This document shows, one piece after another, positions 5,064 to 24,091 of a stretch of 64,000 nucleotides of DNA. The stretch lies in NCBI GenBank assembly GCA_903879915.1, contig CAIRNJ010000102.1, forward strand, positions 13,200-77,199. The letters run 5' to 3'. Numbering within the stretch: position 1 is the first letter of the stretch; every line of letters starts with the position of its first letter. The notes beneath the pieces were generated by a model that saw only the letters and a program-made list of their open reading frames with translations, made no database searches and had not been told where the DNA came from. This DNA comes from an uncultured Elusimicrobia bacterium (GTDB taxonomy: Bacteria > Elusimicrobiota > Elusimicrobia > Elusimicrobiales > UBA9959). The position numbers and the translations under genes are program-made.

Positions 5064-6356
5064 GTGAAAAAAACCGCTCTGCCCCCCGCTTTGCTGTTCA
5101 GCCTGGCTTTTTGCGCCGTGCCCGCGCGCGCGCAGCTTGAAGCGCTCACCGCCGCCGGCCTGCCGGCCGTAGCGGTCCCCGCCGCCGCCGAGCCCGGCCG
5201 CGCGGCCCAGGCCGAGTGGACGGTGCTCATTTACGTAAGCGCCCGCAATAACCTGGGCCTGGAAGCCATCAAGGACGTCAACGAAATGGAAGCCGCCGGC
5301 TCCACCGCTAAAGTTAACGTGGTGGCGGAGCTGGGGCGCATCAAGTGCGATCCCCCTTTCAACCCTTTTTCCAGCACGCAGGAACCGGTGCCGCCGCAGG
5401 CGGACTGGACCGGCTCGCGCCGCTTCCTGCTGGTGAAGGATACCGACCCGCTGAAGATAAATTCCCCGGTGCTGGCCCAGTATCCGGACGCCGACATGGG
5501 CGACTGGCGGCACCTGGCCGAATTCATAGCCTGGGGCAAGGCGGCTTACCCGGCGAAAAAATATATGCTGATAGTGGGCGGCCACGGCAGCGGCTGGCGC
5601 GGCGTAAAGCCCCCTCCCGGCGCGCCCAAGGGCATCGCCTACGATGACGTTTCAGGCAGCCATATCTCCCCCGCCGAGCTGGCGGAGGCTATAAAGGCCG
5701 GCGGCGGCGTGAACGTGTACGCCTCGGACGCCTGCCTGATGCAGACCATAGAAGTGATCTACGACCTGAAGGATTCCGCCGAGTATATCGTTGGCTCGCA
5801 GGAGGCCACGCCAGGCAGCGGCTATAACTACGAGGTTTTCCTGAACGCGCTGGCGGCGGCCCCCGGCGACGCCTTCGCCGCGGCGCAGCACGTAATGGCC
5901 GGTTTCTCCGGCTATTACGGCGGCCTTAAACAGTCGGTGACCATGTCCATAGTGCGCCCAGCTTACGCGGCTGAAATGGCCGGGAAAATGGACAGGTTCG
6001 CCCGGCTGGTGGCCGCTTCCCCCGCGGATATGAAGCTGTACCACGACAGGAAGTTCGGCCTGCGCTCCTACGACGACGAGGACGCCCGCGACCTGTACCA
6101 GCTGATGAAACTGTACTACGACAGCAGCCCCACGCCCGCCGTGAAAGAGGCGGCGCGGGACGTGATAGTGTTCCTGTCGGAAAAGCTGGTGGCGCGCAAC
6201 GACGCGGTGGGCTACAAATCCAAGGACTCCAACGGGCTTTCGGTCTACTTCCCCATCTTCTACATGAACTACAAGCCGAAGTACGAATACCTCTCCTTCT
6301 CCCGGGCCACCTACTGGGACGAAATGGTGAAAGCCGTAGTAGAATCAAAGAAATAA
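5064..6356 (+). CDS. Secreted clostripain-family (MEROPS C11) cysteine peptidase
   Basis: GTG start followed by a signal peptide (VKKTALPPALLFSLAFCAVPARA). C11-type motifs WTVLIYVSARNNL, catalytic-His context IVGGHGSGW and catalytic-Cys context YASDACLM. The upstream 3201-5063 part of the track ORF is an antisense shadow of murD/mraY. Confidence 0.75.
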   Translation: MKKTALPPALLFSLAFCAVPARAQLEALTAAGLPAVAVPAAAEPGRAAQAEWTVLIYVSARNNLGLEAIKDVNEMEAAGSTAKVNVVAELGRIKCDPPFNPFSSTQEPVPPQADWTGSRRFLLVKDTDPLKINSPVLAQYPDADMGDWRHLAEFIAWGKAAYPAKKYMLIVGGHGSGWRGVKPPPGAPKGIAYDDVSGSHISPAELAEAIKAGGGVNVYASDACLMQTIEVIYDLKDSAEYIVGSQEATPGSGYNYEVFLNALAAAPGDAFAAAQHVMAGFSGYYGGLKQSVTMSIVRPAYAAEMAGKMDRFARLVAASPADMKLYHDRKFGLRSYDDEDARDLYQLMKLYYDSSPTPAVKEAARDVIVFLSEKLVARNDAVGYKSKDSNGLSVYFPIFYMNYKPKYEYLSFSRATYWDEMVKAVVESKK

Positions 6357-6367
6357 AACTGCAGCCG

Positions 6368-8083
6368 CTATTCCTTCGCTCCTGAAGAGGGCGGGAAAAA
6401 GAACGCTGAAACGCTGCCCAGCTGCGGCTCGGTCTTCGCGCCGTCGGAATAGATGTAATAAGGGGCGCTGGTGTAGCCGTCCAGGTTGCGCAGCTTCACC
6501 AGCGCGGCGCGCTGCTCCTCGGTGAGCGTTCTGTTCACTTTGGCGAAGGCCATAGTGTAGTACCAGGAAACCTCTCCGTCCAGCTCGCCGTACCGGCGGC
6601 CCAGCGCTAGGACCTTTTCTTTGTCGGGCGCCTGGCCCGCCAGGTACTTGCGCAGCTCAACCGATATTTCCTGCCGCACTTTTATTATTTCCGCCATGGC
6701 CTTGCGCTGGAGGGGCAGCACCGCGTCCACGTGCCGGCGCTGCGCGGGCGTAAGCACCTCGCTGAGGAAGGCCTTGCCGCTGTCGCCGGTCACCGAGGTG
6801 CTGATGTCGAAGCTCTTCTTGCCCATGGCGGGCATGTCCTTCATGTAGAACCCGCCGAAGTAGGTGCCGTGCCGCTCGGGGCAGAAATACGTATCGGCCT
6901 TGACCGAGCCGGCGGTCCAGCTGAAGAACTCGCTCAGATAGGTCATGTAGGCCACGTTGAACATCTTGGGCTTGCCGCGGCCCGCCTCTTTGGCCTCGGT
7001 CTCGTCCAGCTCAGGCCAGGTGGCGAAATCGCCGAACTTCATTTTGGCGAAATAGGCCTTCTGTTCCGCGCTCAGCGACAGCCAGACCTTGGCCATTACC
7101 TCGGCGCGGCGGCGGCTGAGCTCGGCGTCCACTTCAAAGATCCTGCCGACGCTCCGCATTACCGCGGCCTTATTAAGGCCGGTGCTGCCCGAAGGCAGCT
7201 GCTCGTCCTTCTGCATGTGGAAAGCTTTTATGACCGGCAGGCGCAGTTTGGCCAGTGCTACCAGCTGCGGCTGCTGTTCCTCGGCCAGGTCTATGAACAG
7301 CTGCTTCTGTTCGGCCGTTAGGTTATGCGCCACGTTGCCGGCCACCCGGCTGAGGAAGATCGGGTTATGCCCTTTCTTGGCGGCGTCGATGTCGCGCATG
7401 TACTGGAAGCCGAAGAAATCGCACACCTTGCCCGGCGGGATGAACGTGGCCGCGCCGAAATCCCCGGTAAGGAAAGCCAGGCCGTTGAAGGCGATGGTGG
7501 TAAGCTGCGCGTTGTCCGAGACGGCCTGCTCGAGGTTATACCGGCTGCCGCCCTCCTTGCCGCCGCCTTTTCTTCCGGCGCCTCCGGGCCCCCCCTTGCC
7601 CTGGCTGCCCCGCATTCCTCTTTCGCCGTCTTCCGCGCCGGGCCTGTCCGGGGGCGGGTCCATCTGTTTAAGCATCTCGGGATCGAACCCGACGGAGATC
7701 AAAAGTTCGTCTTCAACTGGACCACCCTGCACGCCTATATCCCGCAGGGCCTTGTGTATGGCCTTGGCGTCTTCGGCCGACAAGGCCGAGGCGTCGTACT
7801 TCGAAACTATTTCCGCGGCGCCGGCTTTTTGTTCTTCGGTGATGGTCTGTGAGCCGCCGCGCTCCTGCCTGCTGTTCGCGTTCCTGGACGGCCTTTGCCC
7901 GGATCTCTGCCCGGTCCGCTGTCCCGGCCTCGGTCTCTGGTCCTGCCCTCGCGCCTGCCCCCGTTCCTGCCCCTGGTCCTGCTCCTGCCCCGCTCCCCTG
8001 CCTTCGTCGTCCTGGTCCTGAGCCCGGGCCAGCGGCCCGCCCAGAACCAGCATATAGATGGCCGCCGTTATTAAAAATTTCAT
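6368..8083 (-). CDS. Secreted protein: signal peptide, Gln/Arg/Gly/Asp-rich disordered region, short helical segment, then the uncharacterised X domain with LTXXQ-like motifs (paralogous to the centre of the 1253-aa protein)
   Basis: Start moved to ATG 8083 (MKFLITAAIYMLVLGGPLARAQ signal peptide, GGAGAA RBS 6 nt upstream). The C-terminal ~370 aa align by eye with aa 605-1023 of ORF 8851..12612. Shared blocks: YN[IL]..., FPPGKV.D[YF].GFQ[FY][LM]RD, GHNP.F, LPSG.TGL, FSW..G.V.AD.YFCPER.GTY.GGFY.KD.PAM. Confidence 0.7.
   Translation of the reverse strand: MKFLITAAIYMLVLGGPLARAQDQDDEGRGAGQEQDQGQERGQARGQDQRPRPGQRTGQRSGQRPSRNANSRQERGGSQTITEEQKAGAAEIVSKYDASALSAEDAKAIHKALRDIGVQGGPVEDELLISVGFDPEMLKQMDPPPDRPGAEDGERGMRGSQGKGGPGGAGRKGGGKEGGSRYNLEQAVSDNAQLTTIAFNGLAFLTGDFGAATFIPPGKVCDFFGFQYMRDIDAAKKGHNPIFLSRVAGNVAHNLTAEQKQLFIDLAEEQQPQLVALAKLRLPVIKAFHMQKDEQLPSGSTGLNKAAVMRSVGRIFEVDAELSRRRAEVMAKVWLSLSAEQKAYFAKMKFGDFATWPELDETEAKEAGRGKPKMFNVAYMTYLSEFFSWTAGSVKADTYFCPERHGTYFGGFYMKDMPAMGKKSFDISTSVTGDSGKAFLSEVLTPAQRRHVDAVLPLQRKAMAEIIKVRQEISVELRKYLAGQAPDKEKVLALGRRYGELDGEVSWYYTMAFAKVNRTLTEEQRAALVKLRNLDGYTSAPYYIYSDGAKTEPQLGSVSAFFFPPSSGAKE
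7853..8023 (-). repeat. Low-complexity coding repeat (QDQ/GQR/GQE-rich, about 57 aa)
   Basis: Encodes AQDQDDEGRGAGQEQDQGQERGQARGQDQRPRPGQRTGQRSGQRPSRNANSRQERGG. The DNA shows a cryptic cctg/ctgc periodicity. Confidence 0.6.
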
Positions 8084-8129
8084 AAAGTTCTCCGTTTCCG
8101 CTGCGCCGGGTCTGTCCGCTCTTAACCAC

Positions 8130-8157
8130 TTAAACCTCAGATAGCGTAAAAAGTTCC
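8130..8157 (-). promoter_or_regulatory. ECF-type promoter candidate, site B (upstream of the X-domain gene)
   Basis: The minus strand reads cGGAAC-TTTTTACGCTATCTGAG-GTTTAAg (N17 spacer). Intergenic, between the PEBP stop (8168) and ATG 8083. Same architecture as sites A, C and D. Confidence 0.45.
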
Positions 8158-8167
8158 GCAAGCTCCG

Positions 8168-8788
8168 TTACTGTCCTTCCCCCGGCGGCGGAGGCGGCGG
8201 CCCGTCCGCGCCGTCACTGCCCGGCTCCGTGAACCGCTCATAGATCACGCTGAATTCGGCTGAGCCGAGTATCAGCCCTTTCATGGCCGAGAGCAAAGTT
8301 TCCCGGTTTACTTTCTCCGGCTTAACAGTTATCCTCGGCGCAGCCGACAGCGCGTAGACGGTGTAGATATATTTCTTCGGCCCCGGGCCTTTCGAGTGCG
8401 GCGGCGCGTAGCCCGCCCGCCCGTTCACGCTGTTAGTTCCCAGTATCCCTACGCCTTTTACGTTCTTAGGCAGTTTCCTGGTTTTTGCAGGAATATCGTA
8501 AATTATCCAGTACCATTTGGTCTTGTCCGGCGCGATATGGTGCATGATCAGCGCGAAGCTCTTAGCTGCTTTCGGCGCGCCGCTCCATTCCAGCGGCAGC
8601 GTGGCGCTGGCCCCGTCGCCGGTATATTCCACGGGCAATTGGCCGCCGTCCTCTACGGCGGGGCTCCTGAGCACAAAACCGGCCGCGGAGCTTTTTTTCT
8701 CCGCGCCTTGCTCCGGCTGCGCCGGGGCGCCGCCCGGAAAGGACAGCGCCAGCAGCCCGCCCAGCGCTAAAATAATAAACCGTTCCAT
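8168..8788 (-). CDS. Secreted PEBP/YbhB-YbcL-like protein with a Pro-rich C-terminal tail
   Basis: Start moved to ATG 8788 (MERFIILALGGLLALS signal peptide, GGGAGG RBS). PEBP-like core: LPLEWSGAPKAAKSFALIMHH...KWYWIIYDIP...GYAPPHSKGPGPKKYIYTVYALS. Ends in GPPPPPPGEGQ. Confidence 0.7.
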   Translation of the reverse strand: MERFIILALGGLLALSFPGGAPAQPEQGAEKKSSAAGFVLRSPAVEDGGQLPVEYTGDGASATLPLEWSGAPKAAKSFALIMHHIAPDKTKWYWIIYDIPAKTRKLPKNVKGVGILGTNSVNGRAGYAPPHSKGPGPKKYIYTVYALSAAPRITVKPEKVNRETLLSAMKGLILGSAEFSVIYERFTEPGSDGADGPPPPPPGEGQ

Positions 8789-8802
8789 ATTTCCTCCCGA
8801 TA

Positions 8803-8830
8803 TTAAACAGCTTTGCCCGCAAAAAGTCCA
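8803..8830 (-). promoter_or_regulatory. ECF-type promoter candidate, site D (upstream of the stand-alone PEBP gene)
   Basis: The minus strand reads tTGGAC-TTTTTGCGGGCAAAGCT-GTTTAAt (N17). The -35 is imperfect (TGGAC). It lies only about 15 nt from the ATG, so the leader would be very short. Confidence 0.3.
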
Positions 8831-8850
8831 ACTGCCCGCCGCCCACTTTC

Positions 8851-11800
8851 TCACGGCGCTGTATAGGTCAGCGTCATTGTCGCGGAACTGATAGTGATCC
8901 CCGAAAGCGCGGCCGTAAGAACTGAACCTGTCACCGGTGATGAAAGCGACGGCGCTGCGGACAGGGCGTAGAGCTTATACGTATAAAGCCTGTTGCCGCC
9001 GCCGCAGGGCGGGTTGTAGGCCGTTCCCAGCGGCCCGTCGCTGGTCCCCAGGGTCCCGCCGCCCGTAGTATTCTTGGCGAAGCCTGAACTGCTGCCTGGT
9101 ATGCCGTAGAGTACCCAGTTATACTTGGTCTCTAACTGCGGCGTAACTTCAGACATAGTCAGTGCGAACTGCTGCGTTCCCGAGGGCGCATTGGTCCAGG
9201 ACATGGCGGGAGATGAACTGGAACCGGAACAGGAATATTCCAGCGTCATGGCCCCGCCGCCCGTACCCGCGCCGCTCGTCAGGGTAAAGAGCGCCTGTGT
9301 GACGCTCACCATATGGCTTGCGGAGCCCGAGCCGGCGGAGTTCGAGGCCGTAAGCGTTACGGTATAGGTGCCTGAGGAGGCGTAAACGTGCGCCGGGTTC
9401 TGTGCTGAGCTGGTTGCCCCGTCCCCGAAATCCCAGGCCCACGAGGCAGGGGCGCCGCCGGAGGCGTCCGTGAACGAGACCGTACCGCCGGCGGCAGGAG
9501 AGGAAGGAGAGAAGGAGAACGCCGCCGAGGGCGCGTCGGTGGCGAACAGGTAGTCGGTATCGTCGATATACGGCGTTATCCTGGCCAGCACGGCGGGGTC
9601 GGTGGTGGTGTCCGAGTAAAGGTAAGTGGATCTGCAGACAGAATAGTCGTAAGGGGTCCCGTTGCTATAAGTGCTGATAAGCAGACCGTCCCAGAAATCC
9701 GTCTTCAGATGGGCCCTCTGGGCGGCGCTCAGCGAGTCGGCTACCTGCTTGAAAGTTGTGGCGTAGTAGTAATTGTTAATGCCGTCCAGCGTGCCGTAGG
9801 TGGCCGAGGACAGCGCCAGCACCTGCGCCCTGACGGCGGCGCTGGAAGCGGTAGAGACCAGCAGGGTGCGCAGCAGCGCCGCTATCTGCGCGCGCACTGC
9901 CACTATGCCCTCCATATTGCTCCGCTGCACCTCGATGAGGTTCGTCATGATGGCGGCCTGCGTGGACGCCACGTAGCCCAGGGAACTGTCGAGCAGGGCC
10001 GCCCCGGCGTTGCCGGTCAGCGCGGAGTCTATGGTGTAGCTGACGCCCTGTGGCGCGTTCATGGCCGGCGCGTCCTTGATATAGAACCCGCCGTAATAGG
10101 TGCCCTGGCGTTCTGGGCAGAAATAGACGTCGGCCTCGACGTTGCCGGAATACCAGCTGAAGAGGTCGCCGGCGTAGGTCATTACCAGGGTGTTCATCGT
10201 GGTATTTGAAGCGTTGGCGCCCAGCGCGGTCTCTACCCTTGTCTTCATGTAATTGGCGTCGGTCACGGTCCAGGAGGAAGCGCCCACCCCTTTCATGGCG
10301 TCCAGCTCGGCCAGCTGGGCGCGCGTCATGGAATTATAGACGTTGGCGTAAGCCAGGGCCCGGTCGAAGGCTATCTGGCCGTCCATGAGGTAGAGTTCCT
10401 GCGACACGGCCGTTACCGCGCTCAGGCTGAGGCCGGTGGCGCCGGAAGGGATGTTCCCGTCCATCAAACGCCGGAAAGCTTGTATCAGCCTGAAGCGGTG
10501 ATAAGCGTACTCGTTGACCTGGTCCGCCTGGCTCACTGCCAGGGCCGCCAGCTGCGCCAGCTGGGAGTCGCTGAGTATCCGGATGACGCTGTTGGAGGTC
10601 AGGCCCGTGAAATCCGGGTTGTGCCCCATATTGCTGGGGTCGCTGTCCCGGAGGAACTGGAACCCGGTGTAGTCGGCCACTTTGCCCGGCGGGAAGTACG
10701 ACTGCGAGCCCAGGTTGGCGTTCATCAGGCCGAGGGCGTCGAAGGCCAGCGTGGTGCCCTGGGCCTGGTCGGAGATGCCCTGCGAAATATTATAGGCCGG
10801 CACGGTGACGGTTATAGAGCGGGTCAGCGTGGCCGAGCTGATGGAATTGGCGACCCTGAGCGTGACGGTGTAGCTGCCTGCCGAGCTGTAAACGTGCGTC
10901 GGGTACTGGGCGGTGCTGGTGGACGTGTTGTCGCCGAAATCCCAGGCCCAGGAAACAGGGGCGTTCTGCGAGGCGTCGGTAAAGCTTACCGTGTTATAGG
11001 TGGTAGGGCTGCTCGGGTAGAAGCTGAACGCGGGCGAGACGTTCGCCCGGGCGTAGGTCAGGTTCAGCGCCGCCGAGCTGATGATAAGTGAGGAGATGGC
11101 GCTGGTAAGCACGTCGCCGGTCACCAGGTCCGCTGCCGGCAGGGACGGCGCGCCCGACAGCGCGTATAAAGTGTAGGTATAGACCTTTGGCCCGGGGCCC
11201 TGCGAGCAGGGGGCGGCGTACTCCTGGCTTTGCGTGTCGCTGTTCACGCCCGCGGTGCCCACGCCGGAAGTGTTCTTGTCCAGGCCGGAGGCCGCCGCCG
11301 GTATGGCGTACAGCACCCAGTTCCATTTTGTGCTCCCGTCGCCCGGCAGCGTGGTCATGAGCAGCGCGAACTGCTGCGTGCCCGCCGGCGCGCCCGACCA
11401 GGCCAGGGCCGGGGAGGCGTACGCGCCGTCGCAGGTGTACTCGGCGGCCATGGCCGCCCCCTCCGCGCCTACGGGGCTGGTCAGCGCGAAGGCGCCCGCC
11501 GCCGCCACGGTTACGGTATGGCTGACCGCGCTGGAGCCCGCCGTATTCGCGGCCGTGAGGCTCACCGTGTAGCTGCCGGAGGAACTGAAAACGTGGGTCG
11601 GGGATTGCAGGGTGCTGCTTGAGCCGTCGCCGAAATTCCAGGCCCAGGAAGCGGGCGTGTAGGCAGAGGTGTCCGTAAAAGTCACCGTCTGGCCGGCGGT
11701 GGGCGAGGCGGGCGAAAAACTGAAGGCGGCTACGGGCGCCGACGATACCGCTGCCTGCGTATAGGTCAGCGTCATGGCGGCCGAACTTATGATCAGGCCC

Positions 11801-12612
11801 GAGAGCGCGGCCGTAAGAACGCCGCCCGTCACCTGCGCGGGGTCGGACGAAAGCGACGGGGCTCCGGACAGGGCGTAGAGCGTGTACGTATAAAGCCTGT
11901 TGCCGCCGCCGCAGGGCGGGTTGTAGGCTGTTCCCGCCGCGCCGTCGCTTTTGCCCGCCGTGCCGCCGCCGGTGGTGTTCTTGACGAAGCCGGAGCTGCC
12001 CGCCGGTATGCTGTATAGGACCCAGTTATATTTCGTCTCCAGCTGCGGAGTTAGTTCGGAAATGGTCAGCGCGAACTGCTGCGTGCCGGACGGCGCGCTG
12101 GTCCAGGCCATCGCCGGCGAAGACCCGGCTCCGGAGCAGGAATATTCCAGCGCCATAGCCCCGCCGCTCGTGCCCGCGCCGCTCTCCAGGGTGAAAGTCC
12201 CCTGGCTGACAACGGTCACTGTATGGCTTACGCTCCCGGCCCCCGCGGAGTTGGAGGCCGTAAGGGTTACACTATAACTGCCGGACGAGGCGTAGACGTG
12301 TGTCGGGTTCTGTGCCGCGCTGGTTGCGCCGTCGCCGAAGTTCCAGTCCCAGGAAGAGGGGCTGTTGACGGAGGCGTCGGTAAAGGTTACGGCCTGGCCG
12401 GCGGCCGGTGAAGCAGGAGAATAAGTGAAGGCCGCGGCCGGCGCGGCGGCCAGCGCGGCGGCCGCGGCCGCCCGCTTGTGTTCCGTCACCTTTTCGTCCA
12501 TCGTAGTCACCGCATGTTTTACCGCGCGGGTCATGCCCATATTGATCCCGGCGGACAGCGCGGCGGTCAGCGGGAACAGCGCGGCGAACAGCAGGCAATA
12601 AAGTTGTTTCAT
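8851..12612 (-). CDS. 1253-aa secreted modular protein: SP-[PKD-PEBP]-[PKD-PEBP]-PKD-X domain-[PKD-PEBP]
   Basis: Signal peptide MKQLYCLLFAALFPLTAALSA. Four PKD-type repeats (F.[FY].P..P..G..V.FTD.S...P.SW.W.FGDG..S....P.H.Y...G.Y.V.L...N). Three PEBP-like modules (P.[ML][AS]W...P.GTQQFAL...KYNWVLY.IP...Y.PPC...Y.Y.LYALS). Central ~420 aa are paralogous to ORF 6368..8083. The ATG lies 1 nt after the stop of the upstream barrel gene. Confidence 0.8.
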   Translation of the reverse strand: MKQLYCLLFAALFPLTAALSAGINMGMTRAVKHAVTTMDEKVTEHKRAAAAAALAAAPAAAFTYSPASPAAGQAVTFTDASVNSPSSWDWNFGDGATSAAQNPTHVYASSGSYSVTLTASNSAGAGSVSHTVTVVSQGTFTLESGAGTSGGAMALEYSCSGAGSSPAMAWTSAPSGTQQFALTISELTPQLETKYNWVLYSIPAGSSGFVKNTTGGGTAGKSDGAAGTAYNPPCGGGNRLYTYTLYALSGAPSLSSDPAQVTGGVLTAALSGLIISSAAMTLTYTQAAVSSAPVAAFSFSPASPTAGQTVTFTDTSAYTPASWAWNFGDGSSSTLQSPTHVFSSSGSYTVSLTAANTAGSSAVSHTVTVAAAGAFALTSPVGAEGAAMAAEYTCDGAYASPALAWSGAPAGTQQFALLMTTLPGDGSTKWNWVLYAIPAAASGLDKNTSGVGTAGVNSDTQSQEYAAPCSQGPGPKVYTYTLYALSGAPSLPAADLVTGDVLTSAISSLIISSAALNLTYARANVSPAFSFYPSSPTTYNTVSFTDASQNAPVSWAWDFGDNTSTSTAQYPTHVYSSAGSYTVTLRVANSISSATLTRSITVTVPAYNISQGISDQAQGTTLAFDALGLMNANLGSQSYFPPGKVADYTGFQFLRDSDPSNMGHNPDFTGLTSNSVIRILSDSQLAQLAALAVSQADQVNEYAYHRFRLIQAFRRLMDGNIPSGATGLSLSAVTAVSQELYLMDGQIAFDRALAYANVYNSMTRAQLAELDAMKGVGASSWTVTDANYMKTRVETALGANASNTTMNTLVMTYAGDLFSWYSGNVEADVYFCPERQGTYYGGFYIKDAPAMNAPQGVSYTIDSALTGNAGAALLDSSLGYVASTQAAIMTNLIEVQRSNMEGIVAVRAQIAALLRTLLVSTASSAAVRAQVLALSSATYGTLDGINNYYYATTFKQVADSLSAAQRAHLKTDFWDGLLISTYSNGTPYDYSVCRSTYLYSDTTTDPAVLARITPYIDDTDYLFATDAPSAAFSFSPSSPAAGGTVSFTDASGGAPASWAWDFGDGATSSAQNPAHVYASSGTYTVTLTASNSAGSGSASHMVSVTQALFTLTSGAGTGGGAMTLEYSCSGSSSSPAMSWTNAPSGTQQFALTMSEVTPQLETKYNWVLYGIPGSSSGFAKNTTGGGTLGTSDGPLGTAYNPPCGGGNRLYTYKLYALSAAPSLSSPVTGSVLTAALSGITISSATMTLTYTAP
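8854..9534 (-). repeat. C-terminal PKD-PEBP module (aa about 1027-1253)
   Basis: By eye its protein sequence is about four-fifths identical to the N-terminal module (11755-12432). The DNA differs at many third-codon positions. Confidence 0.7.
9544..10800 (-). other. X domain within the giant protein (aa about 605-1023), uncharacterised, with four LTXXQ-like motifs
   Basis: Motifs LSDSQLAQLAAL, MTRAQLAELDAM, VASTQAAIMTNL and LSAAQRAHLKTD occupy positions equivalent to LTAEQKQLFIDL, LSAEQKAYFAKM, LTPAQRRHVDAV and LTEEQRAALVKL of ORF 6368..8083. Confidence 0.6.
11047..11730 (-). repeat. Second PKD-PEBP module (aa about 295-522)
   Basis: Its PEBP part (STKWNWVLYAIPA...APCSQGPGPKVYTYTLYALS) is the module closest to the stand-alone PEBP gene (KTKWYWIIYDIPA...GPGPKKYIYTVYALS). 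Confidence 0.65.
11755..12432 (-). repeat. First PKD-PEBP module (aa about 61-286)
   Basis: Near-duplicate (at protein level) of the C-terminal module at 8854-9534. Confidence 0.7.
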
Positions 12613-12613
12613 A

Positions 12614-13207
12614 TCAGTACAGGAACAGCAGTGTCTGCGTGTCGCTCTTTTTGGAATTAGAGCGCTTCTTCTGCTGTTTCCCCCTTTTCCCGGCGGTACG
12701 GGCCGCGCCGGCTTTGCCGCCGCCCCAGTAGAAATTAAGCCCGAAATTAGCCACGTATTCGATAGCCCCGGCCGATACGGGCTCGTTTTTGTCCCGCAGG
12801 TAAATATAGGCCGGTCCGAAATCGGCCTGCAGCGAGGCGTCCGGAGCTAGGAAGCATTCGAAGCCTGCGAACAATTCCCCCGCGGCCCCGGCCCCGCGGC
12901 TGACTTCTCCCTTGAACTGTATGTAATCCGCTTCCGCGCCCAGGAACAGGTACATCGCCGCCGACGGGCGGTAATAGCTGTACAGGCGCAGGCCGCCCAC
13001 CGTAACGCCGCCGTCTGCCTGCCCTTTGGCTTCCAGCGCGTAGCGGTCGCTCATGAAATACCTGATACTTAGCCCCGGGTAATTGAAGCCCAGCCCGAAG
13101 GTGCCCCTGCCGGCACCCTGGCCGGCGCATGCCGCGCGGCAGCCCAAAAGCAGAATGCTGAAGCAGAAGCAGACGACCGCTGCGGTATTCCGGAAAGGCT
13201 TGAGCAT
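12614..13207 (-). CDS. Small outer-membrane beta-barrel protein (8-strand type) with a Lys/Arg-rich C-terminal tail
   Basis: Preferred start is ATG 13207 (MLKPFRNTAAVVCFCFSILLLGC...). Alternating aromatic/Gly beta-strand pattern (FGLGFNYPGLSIRYF, LRLYSYY, YLFLGAEADYIQF, ELFAGFECF, IEYVANFGLNFYW). Then the tail GGGKAGAARTAGKRGKQQKKRSNSKKSDTQTLLFLY. The start codon choice (13207, 13219 or 13231) is uncertain. Confidence 0.55.
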   Translation of the reverse strand: MLKPFRNTAAVVCFCFSILLLGCRAACAGQGAGRGTFGLGFNYPGLSIRYFMSDRYALEAKGQADGGVTVGGLRLYSYYRPSAAMYLFLGAEADYIQFKGEVSRGAGAAGELFAGFECFLAPDASLQADFGPAYIYLRDKNEPVSAGAIEYVANFGLNFYWGGGKAGAARTAGKRGKQQKKRSNSKKSDTQTLLFLY

Positions 13208-13335: not shown

Positions 13336-13743
13336 TTAGCGCGGTGCTCGCCTGTCCGGGTCTTCTCCGTCGCGGGGCGGCGGCGGCCTGTTTTCGCGGC
13401 GTTTGGAATCGTTGTCCAGTTCTTCCAGCCTGGCGTACTGCTCCGGCGTAAGGACGATCCTCAATTCCGACTTGATCCTCCGGCGCAGTTCTTCTAATCT
13501 GGGCTGTATGGAATCCTTCGTCTTTTTTACTTCTGGCCGGTATTTATTGAAAATGGCCGAAACCTGCTCCTGCTGGGGGCCGGAGAGGCCGAGCTCGCGG
13601 GTGAATTTTTCTATCGCGCCTTCGGCGGGGACCGGCTGCGGCGGCCTGCGTTTAAGATGCATATGATAATAATCGGAGAACAGGGCGCCCATCAGGACGC
13701 CCGCGGCCACGGCTGCGGCTATCTGGTTCCAGCGTATGTTCAT
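13336..13743 (-). CDS. Periplasmic LTXXQ-motif protein (Spy/CpxP/ZraP-like, the 'periplasmic heavy metal sensor' family)
   Basis: Start moved to ATG 13743, which overlaps the anti-sigma stop (ATGA). N-terminal TM/signal anchor IAAAVAAGVLMGALF, then LSGPQQEQVSAIF and LTPEQYARLEEL motifs. Basic/Pro-rich tail. Confidence 0.7.
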   Translation of the reverse strand: MNIRWNQIAAAVAAGVLMGALFSDYYHMHLKRRPPQPVPAEGAIEKFTRELGLSGPQQEQVSAIFNKYRPEVKKTKDSIQPRLEELRRRIKSELRIVLTPEQYARLEELDNDSKRRENRPPPPRDGEDPDRRAPR

Positions 13744-14228
13744 TTGTCCGCTCCTTCCAGCATGGTCAAAAGGTTCCCCCCGCCGGCCGCAGGGCCTTCG
13801 GAGAAGATATTGGAAAGGGGTGAGCCTGAACTCCGGGCGGCCGGAACGGAGAACTGGCGCGCCGGCATAAGGCCGGTCTCGACGCACAGAACGTAGACGG
13901 CAAAGGAGGCCAGGGTCATGGCCGGCACTTTCCACCAGCCCGCCAGCGCCGCGCGCGTATCCGGTGAAAGCGCGAACGGGTTGAAACCGGAAGCCTGTTC
14001 TTCCGCCTGCCCGGCCCGGAGCTTCGCCATCAGGGCATCCACGAATTTATCGCCCAGCGCTGGAGCCTCGTACAGCTCCAGAGCCTGCCAAGCTTTGGAG
14101 AGCAGTTCAGCTTCTTTGCGGCAGGAGGCGCATTCTTCAAGGTGGCCGCTAAGTTCCGCCTTTTCGGAGTCATTCAGGCTGCCGGAAAGGCCGCCGGCTG
14201 AAATTTCCATGGCTCTTTTACAGTTCAT
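13740..14228 (-). CDS. Anti-sigma factor, zf-HC2 type, single-pass membrane protein
   Basis: H-x3-C-x2-C motif (HLEECASC) near the N-terminus and one predicted TM segment (VPAMTLASFAVYVLCV). Immediately downstream of the ECF sigma gene. Confidence 0.75.
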   Translation of the reverse strand: MNCKRAMEISAGGLSGSLNDSEKAELSGHLEECASCRKEAELLSKAWQALELYEAPALGDKFVDALMAKLRAGQAEEQASGFNPFALSPDTRAALAGWWKVPAMTLASFAVYVLCVETGLMPARQFSVPAARSSGSPLSNIFSEGPAAGGGNLLTMLEGADK

Positions 14229-14248
14229 AAACTATCCCCTCTCATAGG

Positions 14249-14276
14249 TATAACCGCCGATCATTGAAAAAGTTCC
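14249..14276 (-). promoter_or_regulatory. ECF-type promoter candidate, site C (inside the 3' end of the sigma gene, upstream of the anti-sigma gene)
   Basis: The minus strand reads cGGAAC-TTTTTCAATGATCGGCG-GTTATAc (N17). The GGAAC overlaps the last sigma codons (..AELFQ*). The -10-like element differs (GTTATA), so it could be coincidental. Confidence 0.3.
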
Positions 14277-14848
14277 GCCAGTTTTTCTTTCAGGCCGAGT
14301 TTCGCCCTGTGAAGAATGGATTTTACCGCCTTGGCCGAGCAGCCCATGACCTCCGCGATAGCTTCGTAGGAGAGTTCGTCGTAGCGGCAGAGCAGCACGG
14401 CAGTTCTTTGGTTCTCAGGCAATGAAGCCAGGGCTTTTTTTACCGCCTCGGCCTGTTCTTTTCTGATCAGCAGCTCCGCGGGCGGCAGATCTTTCGGGTC
14501 AGCCAGCTGCAGGCCGGGCGCGTCTTCCTGCGCTTCAGGCTTTTCGTCCAGAGGGACGAAAAGGCCCCTATGCCCGCGTTTAGCCAGAAAATTCAGACAG
14601 GTGTTGCGCGTAATGGTGAACAGCCAGGTGGTGAACTTCGCTTTTACCGTGTATTTGTTCCGGGCGTTGTAAACTTTAATAAAAACTTCCTGCGCGGCGT
14701 CCTCGGCGTCGGCGGCGTTGCCCAGGAACCTGTAAGCGAAGGCGAAAACCCGCTGCTTATGGGTTTTGACCAGCTCTATGAAGCAGGACTCCTCCCCGGC
14801 GATAAAGCGGAGCATCAACCGCGCGTCCTGGTCGGGATCCTCTGTCAT
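14261..14848 (-). CDS. ECF (group 4) RNA polymerase sigma-70 factor
   Basis: 195 aa. Region 2 (AEDAAQEVFIKVY...FTTWLFTITRNTCLNF) and region 4 (LPENQRTAVLLCRYDELSYEAIAEVMGCSAKAVKSILHRAK). The ATG overlaps the stop of the upstream PD40/TPR gene (ATGA). Confidence 0.9.
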   Translation of the reverse strand: MTEDPDQDARLMLRFIAGEESCFIELVKTHKQRVFAFAYRFLGNAADAEDAAQEVFIKVYNARNKYTVKAKFTTWLFTITRNTCLNFLAKRGHRGLFVPLDEKPEAQEDAPGLQLADPKDLPPAELLIRKEQAEAVKKALASLPENQRTAVLLCRYDELSYEAIAEVMGCSAKAVKSILHRAKLGLKEKLAELFQ

Positions 14849-17322
14849 TTATCTATGGACCGTGTTTCCTGCGCGGCCAGCGCGCTCTTCAGGTGACGGG
14901 CCGCGCTGTCCAGGTCGGGGTCGATGCTTAACGCTTTCCTGTAGGAAGCCAGCGCTTCGTCCCGGCGGCCCAGCTTTTCCAGCACCGCGCCCAGGAGGTC
15001 GTACGTACCCGCGTATTTCGGCTCCAGCCTTATCACTTCTCGGTAATGGGTTTCGGCCTCGCCGAACTCGCCGCGCGCCGCGAGCAGGGCCGCTAAAATG
15101 TCGTGAATGGCCACGTTGTTGCGGTCCAGCCGCGCCGCTTCCCTGTATTGCTTCACGGCCTCGGCCGGAGTACCCTGCGCTTCAAGGGCGGCGCCCAGCT
15201 CGGCGTGCAGCAGCGCGGTGTCGGGGCTCAGCTTCAGCGCCGCCAGGTATTTCTCTATGGCTTCAGCGAGCATTGCTTTTCTTTCCGCCCCGGAATATTC
15301 CGCCGGGCCCGGCGGCACATAGTCGTAGCGGGCTTTCAGCGCCGCGTGGTAATTGGTCCTGTCATCAGGCAGCAGGCTCTGCATGCCCAGGGCGCCGGCC
15401 AGATAATAGAACACGATAGCCGAATCCGGCCGCGCATTTATTGAGTCCCTGTAATGGCCGATCGCGCCTTTCAGGTCGCCGCGCTTAGCCAGGAGCAGGC
15501 CCATATTGGCGTGCGCGTGGGGATCGTTGGGGGCTAATTTAAGCGCCTCGTTCAAATGAGAGAAAGCCTCCTCGCGGCTGCCGGTCTTCTCCAGCGCAAC
15601 GCCCAGCAGGATCTGCACTTCGGTGTTCCCTGGGTCGAGCTCCAGCGCTTTGCGGTACGAAGCTATGGCTCCGCCGCTGTCGTTGGCCCTGGCGAACTCG
15701 AGGCCCGCCCGGTGGAAGGAAAGGCTGTCCAGGAACCTTTCGCGTATCTTTTTAAGTATGCCGCCTTTAGCCGGGAGGAATTCCGGGATGTTGGCCGCCC
15801 TGTCGGGCGCGGTAAAGCCGTCCAGCAGGACAGGGGGCGTATCGTTGCCCTGCGCGTCGATATGGGTAAGAAAAAGCTGTGTATAGGGCGTGTTGGCCTT
15901 GGAGGCGAAGACCAGCCAGCGGCTGTTGGGCGACCAGCTGTGCCAGGAGTTCATCGTGGGTTGGTTGCAGCGCATTTTCCTGGCTTCGCCCCCGCCGGCG
16001 GGCATGATATAGAGCTCGCTGTCGGGCTGCAGCAGCATGAAACTTTTCGCTTTGCAGAATATTATCCATTTCCCGTCGGGCGAATATTTCGGGAAGAAAT
16101 TGCTCATGCCGTTATCGGAAGCGCCCTGCAGCGGTTCCGGCTTGCCGCCGCGGCCTTCGTTGAAAGCAACGCGGTAAAGGTCGAACAGGAATTTCTGGCC
16201 GCCTTCCAGGAATTCCGCGCATTCTTCCTTCGCCAGCAGCACCTTGTCCCTATCGCGCAGATTTTTCAGCTTATGCGCCAGGTTCCTGGCGAAAACGATA
16301 TACTTGCCGTCGGGGCTCCAGGCGGGGTTGCTCTGTACGAATTCGGGGTCGTCAGCGCCCGGCAGCGCCTGGAAGGTCTTAGCCGCGCGGGAATAGACGG
16401 CCAGGATGCCGCTGACCGGAAAAAAAAGCTGCGAGAAGGCCAGCCCCGGCGTGGCCACGAACACCGAGCGGTCCTTGACCGTGCTGACCGCGTACCGCCC
16501 GTCCGGGGAAACCTGCGAAAGCAGGCCGAAGGTCTGGACGCCTTCCGTCCTTTTATAATCGTGCCAAGTGATGATCTTGCTTTTGTCGAGGATGGTCTCT
16601 TCGAGCACCCGGGCGATGGCGTAGGAGCCTTTGTCGTTGGCGTAATCCACGTCCATGCCCAGCACCGAGCCGTCGGCGGAAAAGGAATGGCAGTTGCCGC
16701 AGACCGGCAGATTCTCCAGCACTACCGGGGGCTGCGTTCTCAGGGAGACCTTCCCCAGCCGCCAGCGGATGCGCGAGGGGTCCTTTACCGCCTCGCTGAA
16801 CGGCAGGTTCACTTCCCTGTAGAACAGCGGCGCCTCTACTTTGTCTTTGGAGGTGCTGAAGGAAATGCTGCCCGCAGACAGGATATTTCCGGGCGCGCCG
16901 CGGGCGGCGCCGGCCACGGTAAGCCTGGCGGTCCGCTCCAGCGACCGGCGTTTGATAAGCTCCCAGTCGTCGTTGCCGGGAGTCCACTCCGGGGCCGCGG
17001 AAATAAAGCTCAGGCGGCCGCCGGCCGCGCCGGAGAATTCTATAGTCACCAGCCACAGGTCCGCGGCGGCGTTGTTGTCTTTCCAGCGGAACCCGGGGGC
17101 CGCTATGTCCGCCGGGAAAAGCGTGCCGTCGAAAGGTTTCTCGAAGGTTATGCCGCCGTCAGCCGCTCCGCTCCTGTAAGCCGCCAGCAGGGCGGCCAGG
17201 GCGGGGTCGGGCCTGGCCGGCGCGGCCGAGATAGTGCGCAGCAGCCCGGCGCCCAGTACGGCCAGCAGCAGCAGCGCGGCGCGGCGGTGCTGCTGTACTA
17301 TGAAGAGCGTGATGGTTCTCAT
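14845..17322 (-). CDS. Secreted protein: N-terminal domain with a single CXXCH motif, TolB-like PD40 beta-propeller repeats, C-terminal TPR repeats
   Basis: Signal peptide. VCGNCHS at aa 207-213. PD40-type repeats (VSPDGRYAVSTV, WSPDGKYIVFAR, YSPDGKWIIFCK, WSPNSRWLVFAS). At least five TPR-like units in the last ~270 aa (for example AIASYRKALELDPGN, AIGHYRDSINARPD, ALASYRKALSIDPD). Confidence 0.75.
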   Translation of the reverse strand: MRTITLFIVQQHRRAALLLLAVLGAGLLRTISAAPARPDPALAALLAAYRSGAADGGITFEKPFDGTLFPADIAAPGFRWKDNNAAADLWLVTIEFSGAAGGRLSFISAAPEWTPGNDDWELIKRRSLERTARLTVAGAARGAPGNILSAGSISFSTSKDKVEAPLFYREVNLPFSEAVKDPSRIRWRLGKVSLRTQPPVVLENLPVCGNCHSFSADGSVLGMDVDYANDKGSYAIARVLEETILDKSKIITWHDYKRTEGVQTFGLLSQVSPDGRYAVSTVKDRSVFVATPGLAFSQLFFPVSGILAVYSRAAKTFQALPGADDPEFVQSNPAWSPDGKYIVFARNLAHKLKNLRDRDKVLLAKEECAEFLEGGQKFLFDLYRVAFNEGRGGKPEPLQGASDNGMSNFFPKYSPDGKWIIFCKAKSFMLLQPDSELYIMPAGGGEARKMRCNQPTMNSWHSWSPNSRWLVFASKANTPYTQLFLTHIDAQGNDTPPVLLDGFTAPDRAANIPEFLPAKGGILKKIRERFLDSLSFHRAGLEFARANDSGGAIASYRKALELDPGNTEVQILLGVALEKTGSREEAFSHLNEALKLAPNDPHAHANMGLLLAKRGDLKGAIGHYRDSINARPDSAIVFYYLAGALGMQSLLPDDRTNYHAALKARYDYVPPGPAEYSGAERKAMLAEAIEKYLAALKLSPDTALLHAELGAALEAQGTPAEAVKQYREAARLDRNNVAIHDILAALLAARGEFGEAETHYREVIRLEPKYAGTYDLLGAVLEKLGRRDEALASYRKALSIDPDLDSAARHLKSALAAQETRSIDK

Positions 17323-17337
17323 GGCGGCTGGTTTCCT

Positions 17338-20300: not shown

Positions 20301-20781
20301 CGTCCGTAATGTTCGGGCGCATCAGGGCGGTCAGATAAGAACTGAACAGTTCGTAGAACTCGGCAGGGCCGGCAGCCGTTGAAAACTGGTAGTTCGTTAA
20401 ATCGGAATATGAGACCGCGTTATGTTTGCCCATCCGCATCTGCATAAGCGTGTTGAGTTCCCGTCCCATCGTACCTTTGCCTATAAGGAGATGCTCCAGC
20501 GTATGCGCCGCGCCGCGGTCGTCGGCTGGAAGCGTGCGGAAATAGACGGAGACCTGCGGCACAGAGTCGAAGAACAGCACATCTACGGTCAGCCCGCGGT
20601 CATGCACGAAACGGGCCCCTTTGGGTCCGCCTGAGGGGTCCAGGTACAGGGCGCTGACCCGGAATGTTTTCGCAAATACCTGATCTTGTTTCAAGGCGGT
20701 GAGGTCGCCGGGGCCTGCGGCGTTAGCCAGGGCGGAGAGCATTAGAGATAGCCAAAGGAAAATTATCGGGCGTGGAGCCAT
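17338..20781 (-). CDS. Oversized (1147 aa) secreted M16 (pitrilysin/insulinase) family zinc peptidase
   Basis: Signal peptide MAPRPIIFLWLSLMLSALANA. Inverted zinc motif HxxEH (AAHTLEHLLIGKG) followed by a downstream Glu-containing segment (VYTEMV). About twice the length of typical M16 subunits. Confidence 0.75.
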   Translation of the reverse strand: MAPRPIIFLWLSLMLSALANAAGPGDLTALKQDQVFAKTFRVSALYLDPSGGPKGARFVHDRGLTVDVLFFDSVPQVSVYFRTLPADDRGAAHTLEHLLIGKGTMGRELNTLMQMRMGKHNAVSYSDLTNYQFSTAAGPAEFYELFSSYLTALMRPNITDEEMRREIAHTAVVEEGGLLKLEEKGTVYTEMVASAEQPAWIRWYQLTEMLYGPKHPLARVQGGRPEKIWELSPADVRAFHATHYHLDGNMEMIAALPQGWDAADFLARLNDEILRLEPQPPAGSYSGLPPFEPLKSREVRIGSFPSDGTPVPQDALLAWPPGKTFSTDEKPRIDLAIDLLGGGETSYLYRDLIDQKTRKLDSGATNIGADAEALPASYAMLWLSGIPPANVTPAKLGRLRDIVNERVRWLHDLKPGSPELAEVADRARSRMLSYRRSRLKAMEGPPMFGERSTGESWHRFLDGLSADPGFDKSLSEDAALDRLLAELGEGKNPWAAALERAGMLEQPYVSAVLPDPALLEHEKGLKQQRLKAVSQRLTVAYGLPEAKALERYRAETASATAELEALERGAPEPSFLREPPLELDQLAWSESLMASGARLVRTQFQTPFTDISVNFDLRGVPEGDRELLPLLGGALGSVGVVTRAGERLDYAAARERIMAEIYDAGVGVAAYPRSDRAELSFSATASSPEEVDRAVAWIENYLLRPGLTPAARERLIDTLRAGIQGWRGIFQQDEESWVSEAVAAYRYQDRPLYMNISSPFTVLRSLNRLRWRLEDPAPERLAALRAAAAEVMAAAKTSDRAAAEKLLAGVDGEFGEYLRWEFAHLPDDSWRADLRTLASDFLADVGHPAETIRRLQALAAGVLVRTGTRVHINGNAANSDRAARQLETLLDRLPRGRQAAAPPRKDLVVGRLRQRLPGIGRPAHVALVNNGGKTGTISVWTPAAGYNSFQPGDLPDALALGILAGGGAHSLFMRTWGAGLAYSNGLGLYASIGQARYYADKCPDPAQTLRFAAGVAAETKIEDTSQLEYSLATSFADYRAAGSFSSRGAALAYDLEEGNRPEAVHAYKYALLELARRPGTLTLVRARFLKALGRVLPGLPGGRVSDSPQAGAFLTGPDSLIRSYESFVREKGEAAEVVRLYPRDFWP

Positions 20782-20862
20782 GATTAATTTTACTACAGTT
20801 GCAAGGTTATCTGTACATAAGGTGCCTAGATACGGCCACTTATAAGAAAGGCCAGAGCACTA

Positions 20863-23876: not shown

Positions 23877-23881
23877 TTCAG

Positions 23882-24091
23882 CTATTTTCCCTTGAGTACC
23901 TTTGGGTGGGTAGGCGGCGGGATGGGGTCCGGTTGAGGTGATGTGTCGTCCTTTCCGGCGTTCAGGCTAATATCATAGCCAGTAGAAGAAGTAAGCGCAT
24001 ACCCATGCTCGGGGAACAGCGACAATGCTATGAAAGATAACATTCCGGTAAAAATAATGTTCACCAGAGCCGCTAAAAGTGTTTTCTTCAT
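23882..24091 (-). CDS. Small (69 aa) secreted/anchored protein with a Pro-rich C-terminus
   Basis: ATG 24091 with GGGGAA upstream. MKKTLLAALVNIIFTGMLSFIALSLF hydrophobic N-terminus, then ...DDTSPQPDPIPPPTHPKVLKGK. Its stop lies 5 nt before the SBP-like gene start. No recognisable family. Confidence 0.4.
   Translation of the reverse strand: MKKTLLAALVNIIFTGMLSFIALSLFPEHGYALTSSTGYDISLNAGKDDTSPQPDPIPPPTHPKVLKGK

Follow-up and report, generated by a model that had tools for sequence, protein, structure and literature searches.

In this report, we describe a protein domain that occurs twice in a 64,000-nucleotide stretch of DNA from an uncultured Elusimicrobia bacterium (contig CAIRNJ010000102.1; the whole stretch is referred to as "the window", and all positions are window positions unless another locus is named): once in a protein of 571 amino acids (aa), which we call ProtA, and once in a protein of 1253 aa, which we call the giant. 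The repeated domain is referred to as X, the ProtA type as X1 and the giant type as X2. Our comparative analysis gives good support to the conclusion that X is an enlarged, duplicated module of the LTXXQ/CnrX type. With a probability of about one half, we further propose that X is a single-chain, pseudo-dimeric binder, chaperone or modulator of envelope signalling, located in the periplasm or at the cell surface and working together with a PEBP. The two genes and the parts of both X copies are located as follows:

6368-8083, minus strand: gene of ProtA, 571 aa from ATG, starting MKFLITAA (open reading frame and translation; the identical protein is called on public contigs)
6992-7546, minus strand: X1 unit 1 (ProtA aa 180-364), helix, conserved loop and LTXXQ-type hairpin (hhalign against unit 2)
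6422-6991, minus strand: X1 unit 2 (ProtA aa 365-554), helix, conserved loop and LTXXQ-type hairpin (PF07813 match at aa 444-531)
7391-7444, minus strand: X1 unit-1 conserved loop, FIPPGKVCDFFGFQYMRD (invariant alignment columns; GHNP follows at 7361-7372)
6836-6889, minus strand: X1 unit-2 conserved loop, YFCPERHGTYFGGFYMKD, diverged twin of the unit-1 loop (hhalign register and invariant columns)
7307-7321, minus strand: ProtA LTXXQ motif 1, LTAEQ, aa 255 (motif scan)
7061-7075, minus strand: ProtA LTXXQ motif 2, LSAEQ, aa 337 (motif scan)
6740-6754, minus strand: ProtA LTXXQ motif 3, LTPAQ, aa 444 (motif scan)
6512-6526, minus strand: ProtA LTXXQ motif 4, LTEEQ, aa 520 (motif scan)
8851-12612, minus strand: gene of the giant, 1253 aa (four PKD and three PBP stretches in Pfam)
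9538-10800, minus strand: X2 domain of the giant (aa 605-1025), two repeat units (BLASTP against X1, E 5e-64)
10645-10698, minus strand: X2 unit-1 loop, YFPPGKVADYTGFQFLRD (motif scan and alignment; GHNP at 10615-10626)
10072-10125, minus strand: X2 unit-2 loop, YFCPERQGTYYGGFYIKD (motif scan and alignment)
10561-10575, minus strand: X2 LTXXQ-like motif 1, LSDSQ, aa 680 (motif scan)
10315-10329, minus strand: X2 LTXXQ-like motif 2, MTRAQ, aa 762 (motif scan)
9958-9972, minus strand: X2 degenerate motif 3, VASTQ, aa 881, opposite LTPAQ of ProtA (coordinates counted from the BLASTP alignment)
9718-9732, minus strand: X2 LTXXQ-like motif 4, LSAAQ, aa 961 (motif scan)

The comparison of the two copies by BLASTP with composition-based statistics aligns aa 182 to ~565 of ProtA with aa 607 to ~1035 of the giant at 34% identity (430 columns, 215 bits, E 5e-64), and confirms at the level of sequence that X1 and X2 are homologous. 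A preliminary description of the window had matched nucleotides 6437-7540 with nucleotides 9544-10800 by eye, leaving the significance of the similarity to a formal alignment; the BLASTP result is highly significant and agrees with these coordinates, except that the conserved region of ProtA extends to about aa 565, past the end that had been given. The conserved blocks listed in that description are all present, each being invariant or near-invariant in a 30-sequence family alignment: YN[LI].Q..SD.AQ.TT, PPGKV.D..GFQ[YF][ML]RD, GHNP, PSG.TGL and FSW..G...AD.YFCPER.GTY.GGFY.KD.PAM. Its count of four LTXXQ-like motifs per copy holds strictly for ProtA, where all four are canonical, but not for the giant, where the third is degenerate. 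Since both segments are helical and rich in Ala, Leu and Gln, their resemblance might be ascribed to chance or composition; this reading, to which we give a negligible probability, is refuted by the E-value obtained with compositional adjustment, by dozens of invariant columns that include non-helical motifs, and by the conservation of both halves in thousands of homologues.

The comparison of X with itself indicates that the domain is a tandem duplication of a unit of ~185 aa: in an 82-sequence alignment of both subfamilies, residues 1-185 match residues 186-375 with an hhalign probability of 97.6% (E 3.4e-12, 158 columns), and both conserved loops as well as the four LTXXQ motifs are in register between the units. 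Each unit is composed of an extra helix, a very conserved loop with the consensus T[FY][IF][PC]P[GE][KR]..[FY]FG..YM[RK]D, and a long hairpin with two LTXXQ motifs; judged by this register, the unit-2 signature TYFCPERHGTYFGGFYMKD is a diverged twin of the unit-1 signature TFIPPGKVCDFFGFQYMRD. The invariant columns of the unit-1 loop are P37, P38, G39, K40, V41, D43, G46, F47, Q48, R51, D52, D54, G59, H60, N61 and P62, and those of the unit-2 loop are Y220, F221, C222, P223, E224, R225, G227, T228, Y229, G231, F233, Y234 and K236. Of the Cys, His and Met residues considered as metal ligands, Cys222 and His60 alone are universal in X1 and X2; in X2, Cys42, Met235, Met238 and Met241 are replaced, and His226 is changed to Gln in 14 of 41 sequences. 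Cys222 occurs in 41/41 sequences, Cys42 in 40/41 X1 sequences and a Cys near position 360 in 30/41 X2 sequences, a distribution which suggests that the likely disulfide partner of Cys222 is Cys42 in X1 and Cys~360 in X2, with 11 X2 sequences lacking a partner. The internal duplication and the twin relation of the loops had been missed by the preliminary description, as had the link with PEBP, which is the strongest contextual signal.

The membership of X in the LTXXQ family is supported by several lines of comparison. The Pfam model PF07813 matches ProtA aa 444-531 with 35.7 bits in the whole protein and 40.4 bits in the isolated domain, against a gathering threshold of 24.3; it matches 29 of the 30 aligned family members, and in one PEBP-X1 fusion the match falls on unit 1. 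Pfam covers ~90 aa of X1 and none of X2, i.e. the two segments are not jointly matched by a characterised family, and X2 is tied to the LTXXQ family only via its homology to X1. The unit profiles resemble Spy of E. coli (hhalign E 5.9e-5 for unit 1, and 1.8e-4) and CpxP of E. coli (E 7.6e-4 and 2.1e-3). The Metal_resist model (PF13801) scores 16.6 bits on the X domain of ProtA, under its gathering threshold of 29.2, and reaches E <= 0.1 in 14 of the 30 members (best 6.3e-6).

In the AlphaFold2 model of the whole domain, X is nearly all-helical with a predicted TM score (pTM) of 0.85, from which the two units appear to be confidently placed relative to each other, and in the model of unit 2 the hairpin has a predicted local distance difference test score (pLDDT) of 80-93. 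When the single-unit model is compared with the PDB by Foldseek, CnrX, NccX or CpxP account for 14 of the 25 best matches, with probabilities up to 0.96 and target-normalised TM scores of 0.5-0.6 (e.g. 2y3d: probability 0.96, TM 0.60, 108 aligned columns); this agreement between predicted and known folds is suggestive, not significant. The preliminary description had hesitated between an enlarged LTXXQ-related envelope domain and a new fold that embeds LTXXQ helices: the PF07813 match, the half-to-half homology, the profile similarity to Spy and CpxP and the fold matches of the unit speak for the former, and membership in the LTXXQ superfamily is to be favoured over an unrelated fold. Export is suggested by signal-peptide-like hydrophobic N-termini on ProtA, on the PEBP encoded next to it and on the giant (by eye), and by type IX secretion system (T9SS) tails in some family members; together with the PKD, Ig and cadherin partner domains, these N-termini and sorting tails suggest a location in the envelope.

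Searches for other relatives have been conducted as well. NCBIfam gave no family for ProtA, and sequence searches of the PDB with ProtA and with the family profile gave nothing relevant, the best match of the profile (an HMG-box, E 0.03) being spurious. Two candidate sites have been rejected: the FCPER motif is not a sulfatase-type formylglycine site, as C-P-E-R does not fit C-x-P-x-R, and a trinuclear zinc site of the P1-nuclease or phospholipase-C-like kind is at odds with the presence of only one invariant His.

The family that X represents is large. A profile search over 1.84 billion representatives, clustered at 50% identity, has returned at least 955 clusters at E <= 1e-3 and 405 at E <= 1e-30, and both units are found in one stretch in all 150 best representatives. 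X1 has >3000 matches, typically of 420-450 aa and 62-72% identical across phyla (Elusimicrobia, Planctomycetota, Verrucomicrobiota, Lentisphaerota, Bacteroidota, Desulfobacterota, Acidobacteriota, Ignavibacteria and Armatimonadota), with a Chloroflexota homologue at 51%; the closest public relatives, at 77-89% identity, come from metagenome-assembled genomes (MAGs) of Elusimicrobia. In a sample that is biased towards close X1 relatives, the median identity is 62% for X1, 44% for the phosphoesterase and 38% for the sulfatase encoded nearby. X2 has >1600 matches, 53-58% identical to the giant's copy, none of which has a Pfam model on the X part, and it usually forms the N-terminal end, or head, of larger secreted proteins, which carry Ig-like stalks and secretion tails. 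Automatic annotation by JGI names X1 a "Spy/CpxP family protein refolding chaperone", and a RefSeq homologue is a "hypothetical protein".

Among 70 family representatives, PEBP is the commonest fused domain (8), followed by PKD (6) and T9SS sorting tails (3); Fn3, CHB_HEX_C, SGL, FG-GAP, EF-hand and BACON occur in two each, and Lcl_C, Calx-beta, cadherin and metallophosphoesterase (MPE) in one each. In individual loci, X2 is fused to two purple-acid-phosphatase-like MPE domains in a protein of 1456 aa (L032:1469-5839), and to two Lcl_C domains and an SMP-30/gluconolactonase beta-propeller in a protein of 1370 aa (L056:1324-5436). A distant relative of 757 aa without a Pfam match is encoded in an Opitutales MAG (L049:8714-10987; 22.9% identity, E 2e-10) and seems to contain roughly four units, in which motifs like ANYFGFAYYRYIDRA occur.

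The partner that recurs most clearly with X is PEBP. Neighbouring genes were clustered in 80 genome loci with a simple caller of open reading frames, and were cross-checked at the loci for which public gene calls exist. Among the fetched loci, 12 encode a fusion of PEBP with X1 and four a fusion with X2; the PEBP is N-terminal to X1 in Acidobacteriota, Desulfobacterium and Bacteroidota and C-terminal in others, natural fusions being present for instance in Prolixibacteraceae. A separate PEBP gene adjoins X in 12 loci. In the reverse search, which started from the PEBP of the window, X1 was present in two of the three loci examined (63% identity confirmed), and the third locus encodes an extracytoplasmic function (ECF) sigma factor, a Metal_resist protein, MacAB-TolC and PEBP. 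The window contains one separate PEBP gene:

8168-8788, minus strand: stand-alone secreted PEBP-like protein, 206 aa, encoded between the two X genes (Pfam PBP, 74 bits)

This protein scores 52.7 bits with TIGR00481, under the cut-off of 57.75; together with the three PEBP domains of the giant (~11755-12198, ~11050-11493 and ~8854-9291), it matches PF01161 strongly, i.e. the partner of X, and not X itself, is of the YbhB/YbcL type. The DPDAP and G.HRY (G.THRY) motifs seen in E. coli YbhB are missing from the X-associated PEBPs, which carry H[IV]AP (or ELTP/TLPG) and PPHSKGPG.K.Y instead and are conserved like X1 (55-75% identity across phyla). Other members of this subfamily are joined to an FGE-sulfatase domain or to EF-hand pairs (P0490, P0473, P0497), and in one locus (L089) the neighbours are giant proteins that carry Lcl_C, FGE-sulfatase, SGL and arylsulfotransferase domains. 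According to a 2022 family review, YbhB homologues rarely form fusions or conserved neighbourhoods (PMC8793217), and on the basis of that review the association of X with PEBP appears to be undescribed. Our literature search found no paper that links LTXXQ proteins with PEBP or with metallophosphoesterases, and it gave nothing relevant on duplicated LTXXQ proteins or under the JGI product name of X1 either.

Regulatory genes form the second element of the neighbourhood. Among the 49 X1 loci with at least 3 kb of upstream sequence, a kinase/regulator pair is divergent in 12 and co-directional in two, and an ECF/anti-sigma pair is present in four, so that 18/49 have one or the other upstream, which describes adjacency and not control. 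An OmpR-type regulator and a HAMP kinase adjoin X2 in all four X2 loci that were examined and have gene calls. In Niveibacterium microcysteis (CP071060), a kinase/regulator pair accompanies a divergent X2-PKD gene. In NCBIfam, the neighbouring regulator is matched best by the heavy-metal class (225 bits) and the kinase by CpxA, all under the family cut-offs; PhoBR was considered as the identity of this two-component system and rejected on these matches. The divergent layout of cpxRA/cpxP and zraP/zraSR in E. coli K-12 has been checked and is the same as in the divergent X loci.

Of 51 loci, 22 have a purple-acid-phosphatase-like MPE downstream of X1 in the same orientation, eight have a sulfatase there, and 26 have at least one of the two; tight operons of the orders X1-sulfatase-MPE and PEBP-X1-MPE-MPE occur, and in a relative from Elusimicrobia (L002) a phosphoesterase follows directly after X1. 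The X1 and X2 genes are direct neighbours in about 12 loci of several phyla, and the order in Syntrophus, with response regulator (RR) and histidine kinase (HK), is RR-HK-[PEBP-X2]-X1. The complete module is seen on a 375-kb replicon of Candidatus (Ca.) Chlorohelix allophototropha, a member of Chloroflexota (NZ_CP128401.1, 267775-275568; L097): the order is RR-HK-X1-PEBP-MPE-MPE, next to ArsR, thioredoxin and permease genes, and RefSeq labels the products response regulator, HAMP kinase, hypothetical protein, YbhB/YbcL PEBP and metallophosphoesterase (twice). In Bacteroidota (L062:2316-11341, L091:5663-12882, L038 and L060), a PEBP-X1 fusion is encoded between the genes of MacA (HlyD) and MacB (ABC ATPase with MacB_PCD/FtsX permease) in a TolC-type efflux operon, which is followed by a LytS-type kinase and a LytTR regulator.

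When X is set beside CpxP, Spy and ZraP (PF07813, COG3678), the likeness consists of the X1 score above the Pfam threshold, the two LTXXQ motifs per unit, the modelled helical hairpins, the exported-looking N-termini, and the position of the X gene beside, and often divergent from, an OmpR-type two-component system, as in cpxP-cpxRA and zraP-zraSR. The differences are equally distinct: X measures 370-420 aa, against about 140-165 aa, and holds two units in one chain, whereas the known proteins are homodimers; its unit has an extra N-terminal helix and a highly conserved loop of ~45 residues that Spy and CpxP lack; it is far more similar in sequence across phyla; X2 forms part of giant multidomain surface proteins; and X has an obligatory-looking PEBP partner. 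X therefore agrees with the LTXXQ proteins in sequence (X1 only), in motifs and in gene neighbourhood, and departs from the picture of a small single-unit homodimer. In comparison with CnrX and NccX (PF13801), a single X unit finds its best structural matches among them and about half of the members have weak Metal_resist matches, but X is duplicated, has no membrane anchor (its signal sequences look cleavable) and no conserved hairpin His, its invariant H60 and near-invariant H226 being located in the inserted loops. With sub-threshold Pfam scores, no conserved ligands and no anchor, X does not qualify as a CnrX-type metal sensor.

Spy, CpxP, ZraP and CnrX act, in their canonical members, as homodimers, and since the repeat is fused in X, the domain is by analogy most simply regarded as a single-chain pseudo-dimer. 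In the mechanism that we infer, activation of the neighbouring envelope signalling system would switch on the production of X; the two conserved loops of X, which differ from each other and are rich in invariant K, R, H, D and E residues, would form one asymmetric site that holds a partner or ligand, most probably a PEBP domain or the cargo of the PEBP; X would bind or chaperone co-encoded exported proteins in the periplasm or on the surface; and it would exert feedback on the sensor, in the manner of CpxP towards CpxA, ZraP towards ZraS and CnrX towards CnrY. The reading of X as a binder or modulator is drawn from the gene layout, which mirrors cpxP-cpxRA, zraP-zraSR and cnrYXH.

Several observations weigh against this proposal. 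The conserved loops, where the site would be located, are the least confident parts of both structural models (pLDDT < 50; residues 45-59 in unit 1), so that the proposed site is not seen; the Foldseek matches of the single unit have E-values of 0.5-2, not significant alone; and the whole-domain model finds in the PDB only meaningless matches to helical membrane proteins (E >= 0.1, TM < 0.25). Pfam gives X2 alone no LTXXQ match at E <= 1, and many loci have no regulator inside the fetched flank. No MPE, sulfatase or Lcl_C gene is present in the window, and the missing MPE counts here too. The conservation of X1 above that of its neighbours and the invariant charged residues of the loops are more readily explained by a specific ligand or active site than by a promiscuous chaperone, and our literature search found no experiment on any member of the family.

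These residues can be read differently. X might be the catalytic or substrate-binding head of an extracytoplasmic pathway for phosphate or sulfate esters, with the LTXXQ hairpins as mere scaffold: K40, R51, D52, D54, H60, C222, E224, R225 and K236 would form an anion-binding or active site that acts in series with the pocket of the PEBP, with purple-acid-phosphatase-like MPEs and with sulfatases. This would account for the unusually high conservation and the charged invariant residues, and it is in line with the frequency of MPE and sulfatase genes downstream of X1, with the tight operons described above, with the fusion of X2 to two MPE domains, with the placement of X2 as a "head" before Ig-like stalks and secretion tails, and with the FGE-sulfatase and arylsulfotransferase domains near or fused to X-type PEBPs. 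We nevertheless hold it to be unlikely: Pfam, NCBIfam, PDB and Foldseek comparisons show no similarity to a known enzyme fold or family, the sole homology found being to the non-enzymatic LTXXQ proteins; X has only one invariant His and one invariant Cys, the latter perhaps structural, as its likely partner moves from position 42 in X1 to ~360 in X2 (30/41); many X genes have a two-component system as their only conserved neighbour; and the window is devoid of phosphoesterases and sulfatases. A related and likewise doubtful proposal is that X and the divergent PEBP constitute an unrecognised two-part extracytoplasmic system for ligand handling, in which the invariant loops would bind, or act catalytically on, a molecule of the envelope or the environment that carries phosphate or sulfate groups, or else lipid cargo from MacB-type pumps; the PEBP would deliver the molecule, and co-encoded phosphoesterases and sulfatases would process it.

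The best fold matches, the metal sensors CnrX and NccX, point in another direction: X would sense metals in the periplasm or act there as a metallochaperone, like CnrX and ZraP, and its loops would fold around a metal that is reported to the adjacent regulator or handed to co-encoded metalloenzymes. The Metal_resist matches in 14/30 members, the heavy-metal class of the response regulator's best match and the metal-dependent partner domains (MPE, sulfatase, SGL and EF-hand) agree with it, as does the Cys/His/Met-rich unit-2 loop of X1 (FCPERHGTYFGGFYMKDMPAMG), which the model leaves disordered, a common state of metal sites in the apo form. In CnrX-type proteins, however, the metal site is made of His/Glu ligands within the hairpin, and since neither hairpin of X has an invariant His, such a site cannot be conserved in X. 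The Metal_resist score of ProtA is below gathering, the regulator and kinase matches are far under their cut-offs with the kinase nearest CpxA, and X2 does not keep Cys42, Met235, Met238 and Met241 nor, in 14/41 sequences, His226, all of which leaves the metal reading distinctly unlikely. It is the conservation of X1, the charged invariant residues and the poorly modelled loops that keep the enzyme or anion-receptor reading and the metal-site reading alive. Even less probable, in our judgement, is that X1 is a dedicated steric chaperone (foldase) for co-encoded exported hydrolases, comparable to the lipase-specific foldases and without a role in signalling; the Spy-family ancestry and the operons, sometimes fusions, with MPE, sulfatase, SGL and Lcl_C proteins would suit it, but such enzymes are absent from the window and from four proteobacterial/deltaproteobacterial X2 loci, X of Bacteroidota lies inside MacAB-type efflux operons instead, and X1 is more conserved than its supposed clients. 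The pseudo-dimeric binder, chaperone or modulator thus remains the reading that we prefer.

In the window, every relevant gene is located on the minus strand with close spacing, in the order ECF sigma, anti-sigma, small CnrX-like protein, small secreted protein, giant PKD/PEBP/X2 protein, PEBP and X1 protein, and the entire run looks like one stress-controlled unit. The genes that have not been listed above are the following:

14261-14848, minus strand: ECF sigma factor (TIGR02937, 115 bits against a cut-off of 42.9; Sigma70_r2 and r4 recorded on the source contig)
13740-14228, minus strand: anti-sigma factor, zf-HC2 (Pfam E 3.5e-4, 21.0 bits, slightly under the gathering threshold of 22.2)
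13336-13743, minus strand: small membrane-anchored LTXXQ/Metal_resist-like protein, 135 aa, CnrX-like by position (sub-threshold Pfam matches)
12614-13207, minus strand: small secreted protein of unassigned family, directly upstream of the giant gene (open reading frame; 197-aa gene call on the source contig)

The first three genes (13336-14848) form a CnrH/CnrY/CnrX-like trio at the head of the cluster, a likeness to the CnrYXH system, and the ECF sigma factor is the probable regulator of the genes downstream; the same trio is found in a Riflebacteria contig (L088), ahead of MacAB-TolC and a PEBP gene. The 135-aa protein, which the preliminary description had taken for a canonical small LTXXQ member, is probably a member but not a canonical one, its Pfam scores being under gathering (LTXXQ 20.3 against 24.3 bits, E 9.5e-4; Metal_resist 21.5 against 29.2 bits, E 2.7e-4); it has a 75%-identical orthologue in the Elusimicrobia locus L002, and a CnrX-like role in the window is more plausibly its own than that of X. 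The 12614-13207 gene appears, by spacing, to share an operon with the giant gene; a Pfam scan of its product gave no match, and by eye the protein has the unconfirmed look of a small outer-membrane beta-barrel. The giant has the Pfam domain order PKD-PEBP-PKD-PEBP-PKD-X2-PKD-PEBP, where X2 is the stretch of aa ~605-1025 without a model, and orthologues of 1178-1228 aa are found in other Elusimicrobia MAGs.

ProtA consists of a signal-like N-terminus, a Q/G/R-rich linker, a helical N-domain of ~70 aa and X1 as the last ~390 aa. The N-domain (aa ~78-147; ~7640-7850, minus strand), with the pattern LT.EQK..V..IL.KYD...LTA.DAKAIH.A.R.AG..GGP....AGFDP..L..L.PPP, also precedes X1 in many homologues of other phyla; it has no Pfam model and only a weak match to centrin-2 (E 0.35). 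The cluster is surrounded by proteases: upstream of the ECF sigma gene, with a 4-nt overlap, 14845-20781 on the minus strand encodes a Tricorn_N/TPR protein (825 aa) and an M16-type peptidase-like protein (an open reading frame of 1147 aa, called as 1134 aa on the source contig), and at the other end a Peptidase_C11 (clostripain-like) gene (5064-6356, plus strand) converges on the 3' end of ProtA. Further along, the guanine-cytosine (GC) content drops to 0.46-0.51 at 20000-24000, against ~0.62 elsewhere in the window; the dip spans two minus-strand open reading frames (20863-22377 and 22338-23876), one of them similar to a histidine kinase. The region has no Rfam match and may be a foreign insert.

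The LTXXQ proteins Spy, CpxP, ZraP and CnrX are textbook examples of quality control and signal modulation in the periplasm and, to our knowledge, are known almost only as small homodimers from Proteobacteria. X adds to them a large, unstudied sister group with a new, extremely conserved pair of loops, in which, by analogy, the dimer would be fused in one chain, and which is spread over Elusimicrobia, the phyla of the Planctomycetes-Verrucomicrobia-Chlamydiae (PVC) group, Bacteroidota, Desulfobacterota, Acidobacteriota, Chloroflexota and Betaproteobacteria. For annotation, new database models would be worthwhile for X2 and for the N-terminal two thirds of X1, neither of which is covered by an existing one. 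The bacterial PEBPs, the function of which has long been unsettled, gain a strongly supported partner and a regulated operon context, so that their role becomes testable in cultivable carriers, e.g. Niveibacterium microcysteis and Victivallis vadensis. If the two-part system for ligand handling should prove true, it would provide the first defined biochemical role for bacterial PEBPs, and the LTXXQ scaffold would have been turned into a specific receptor or enzyme.

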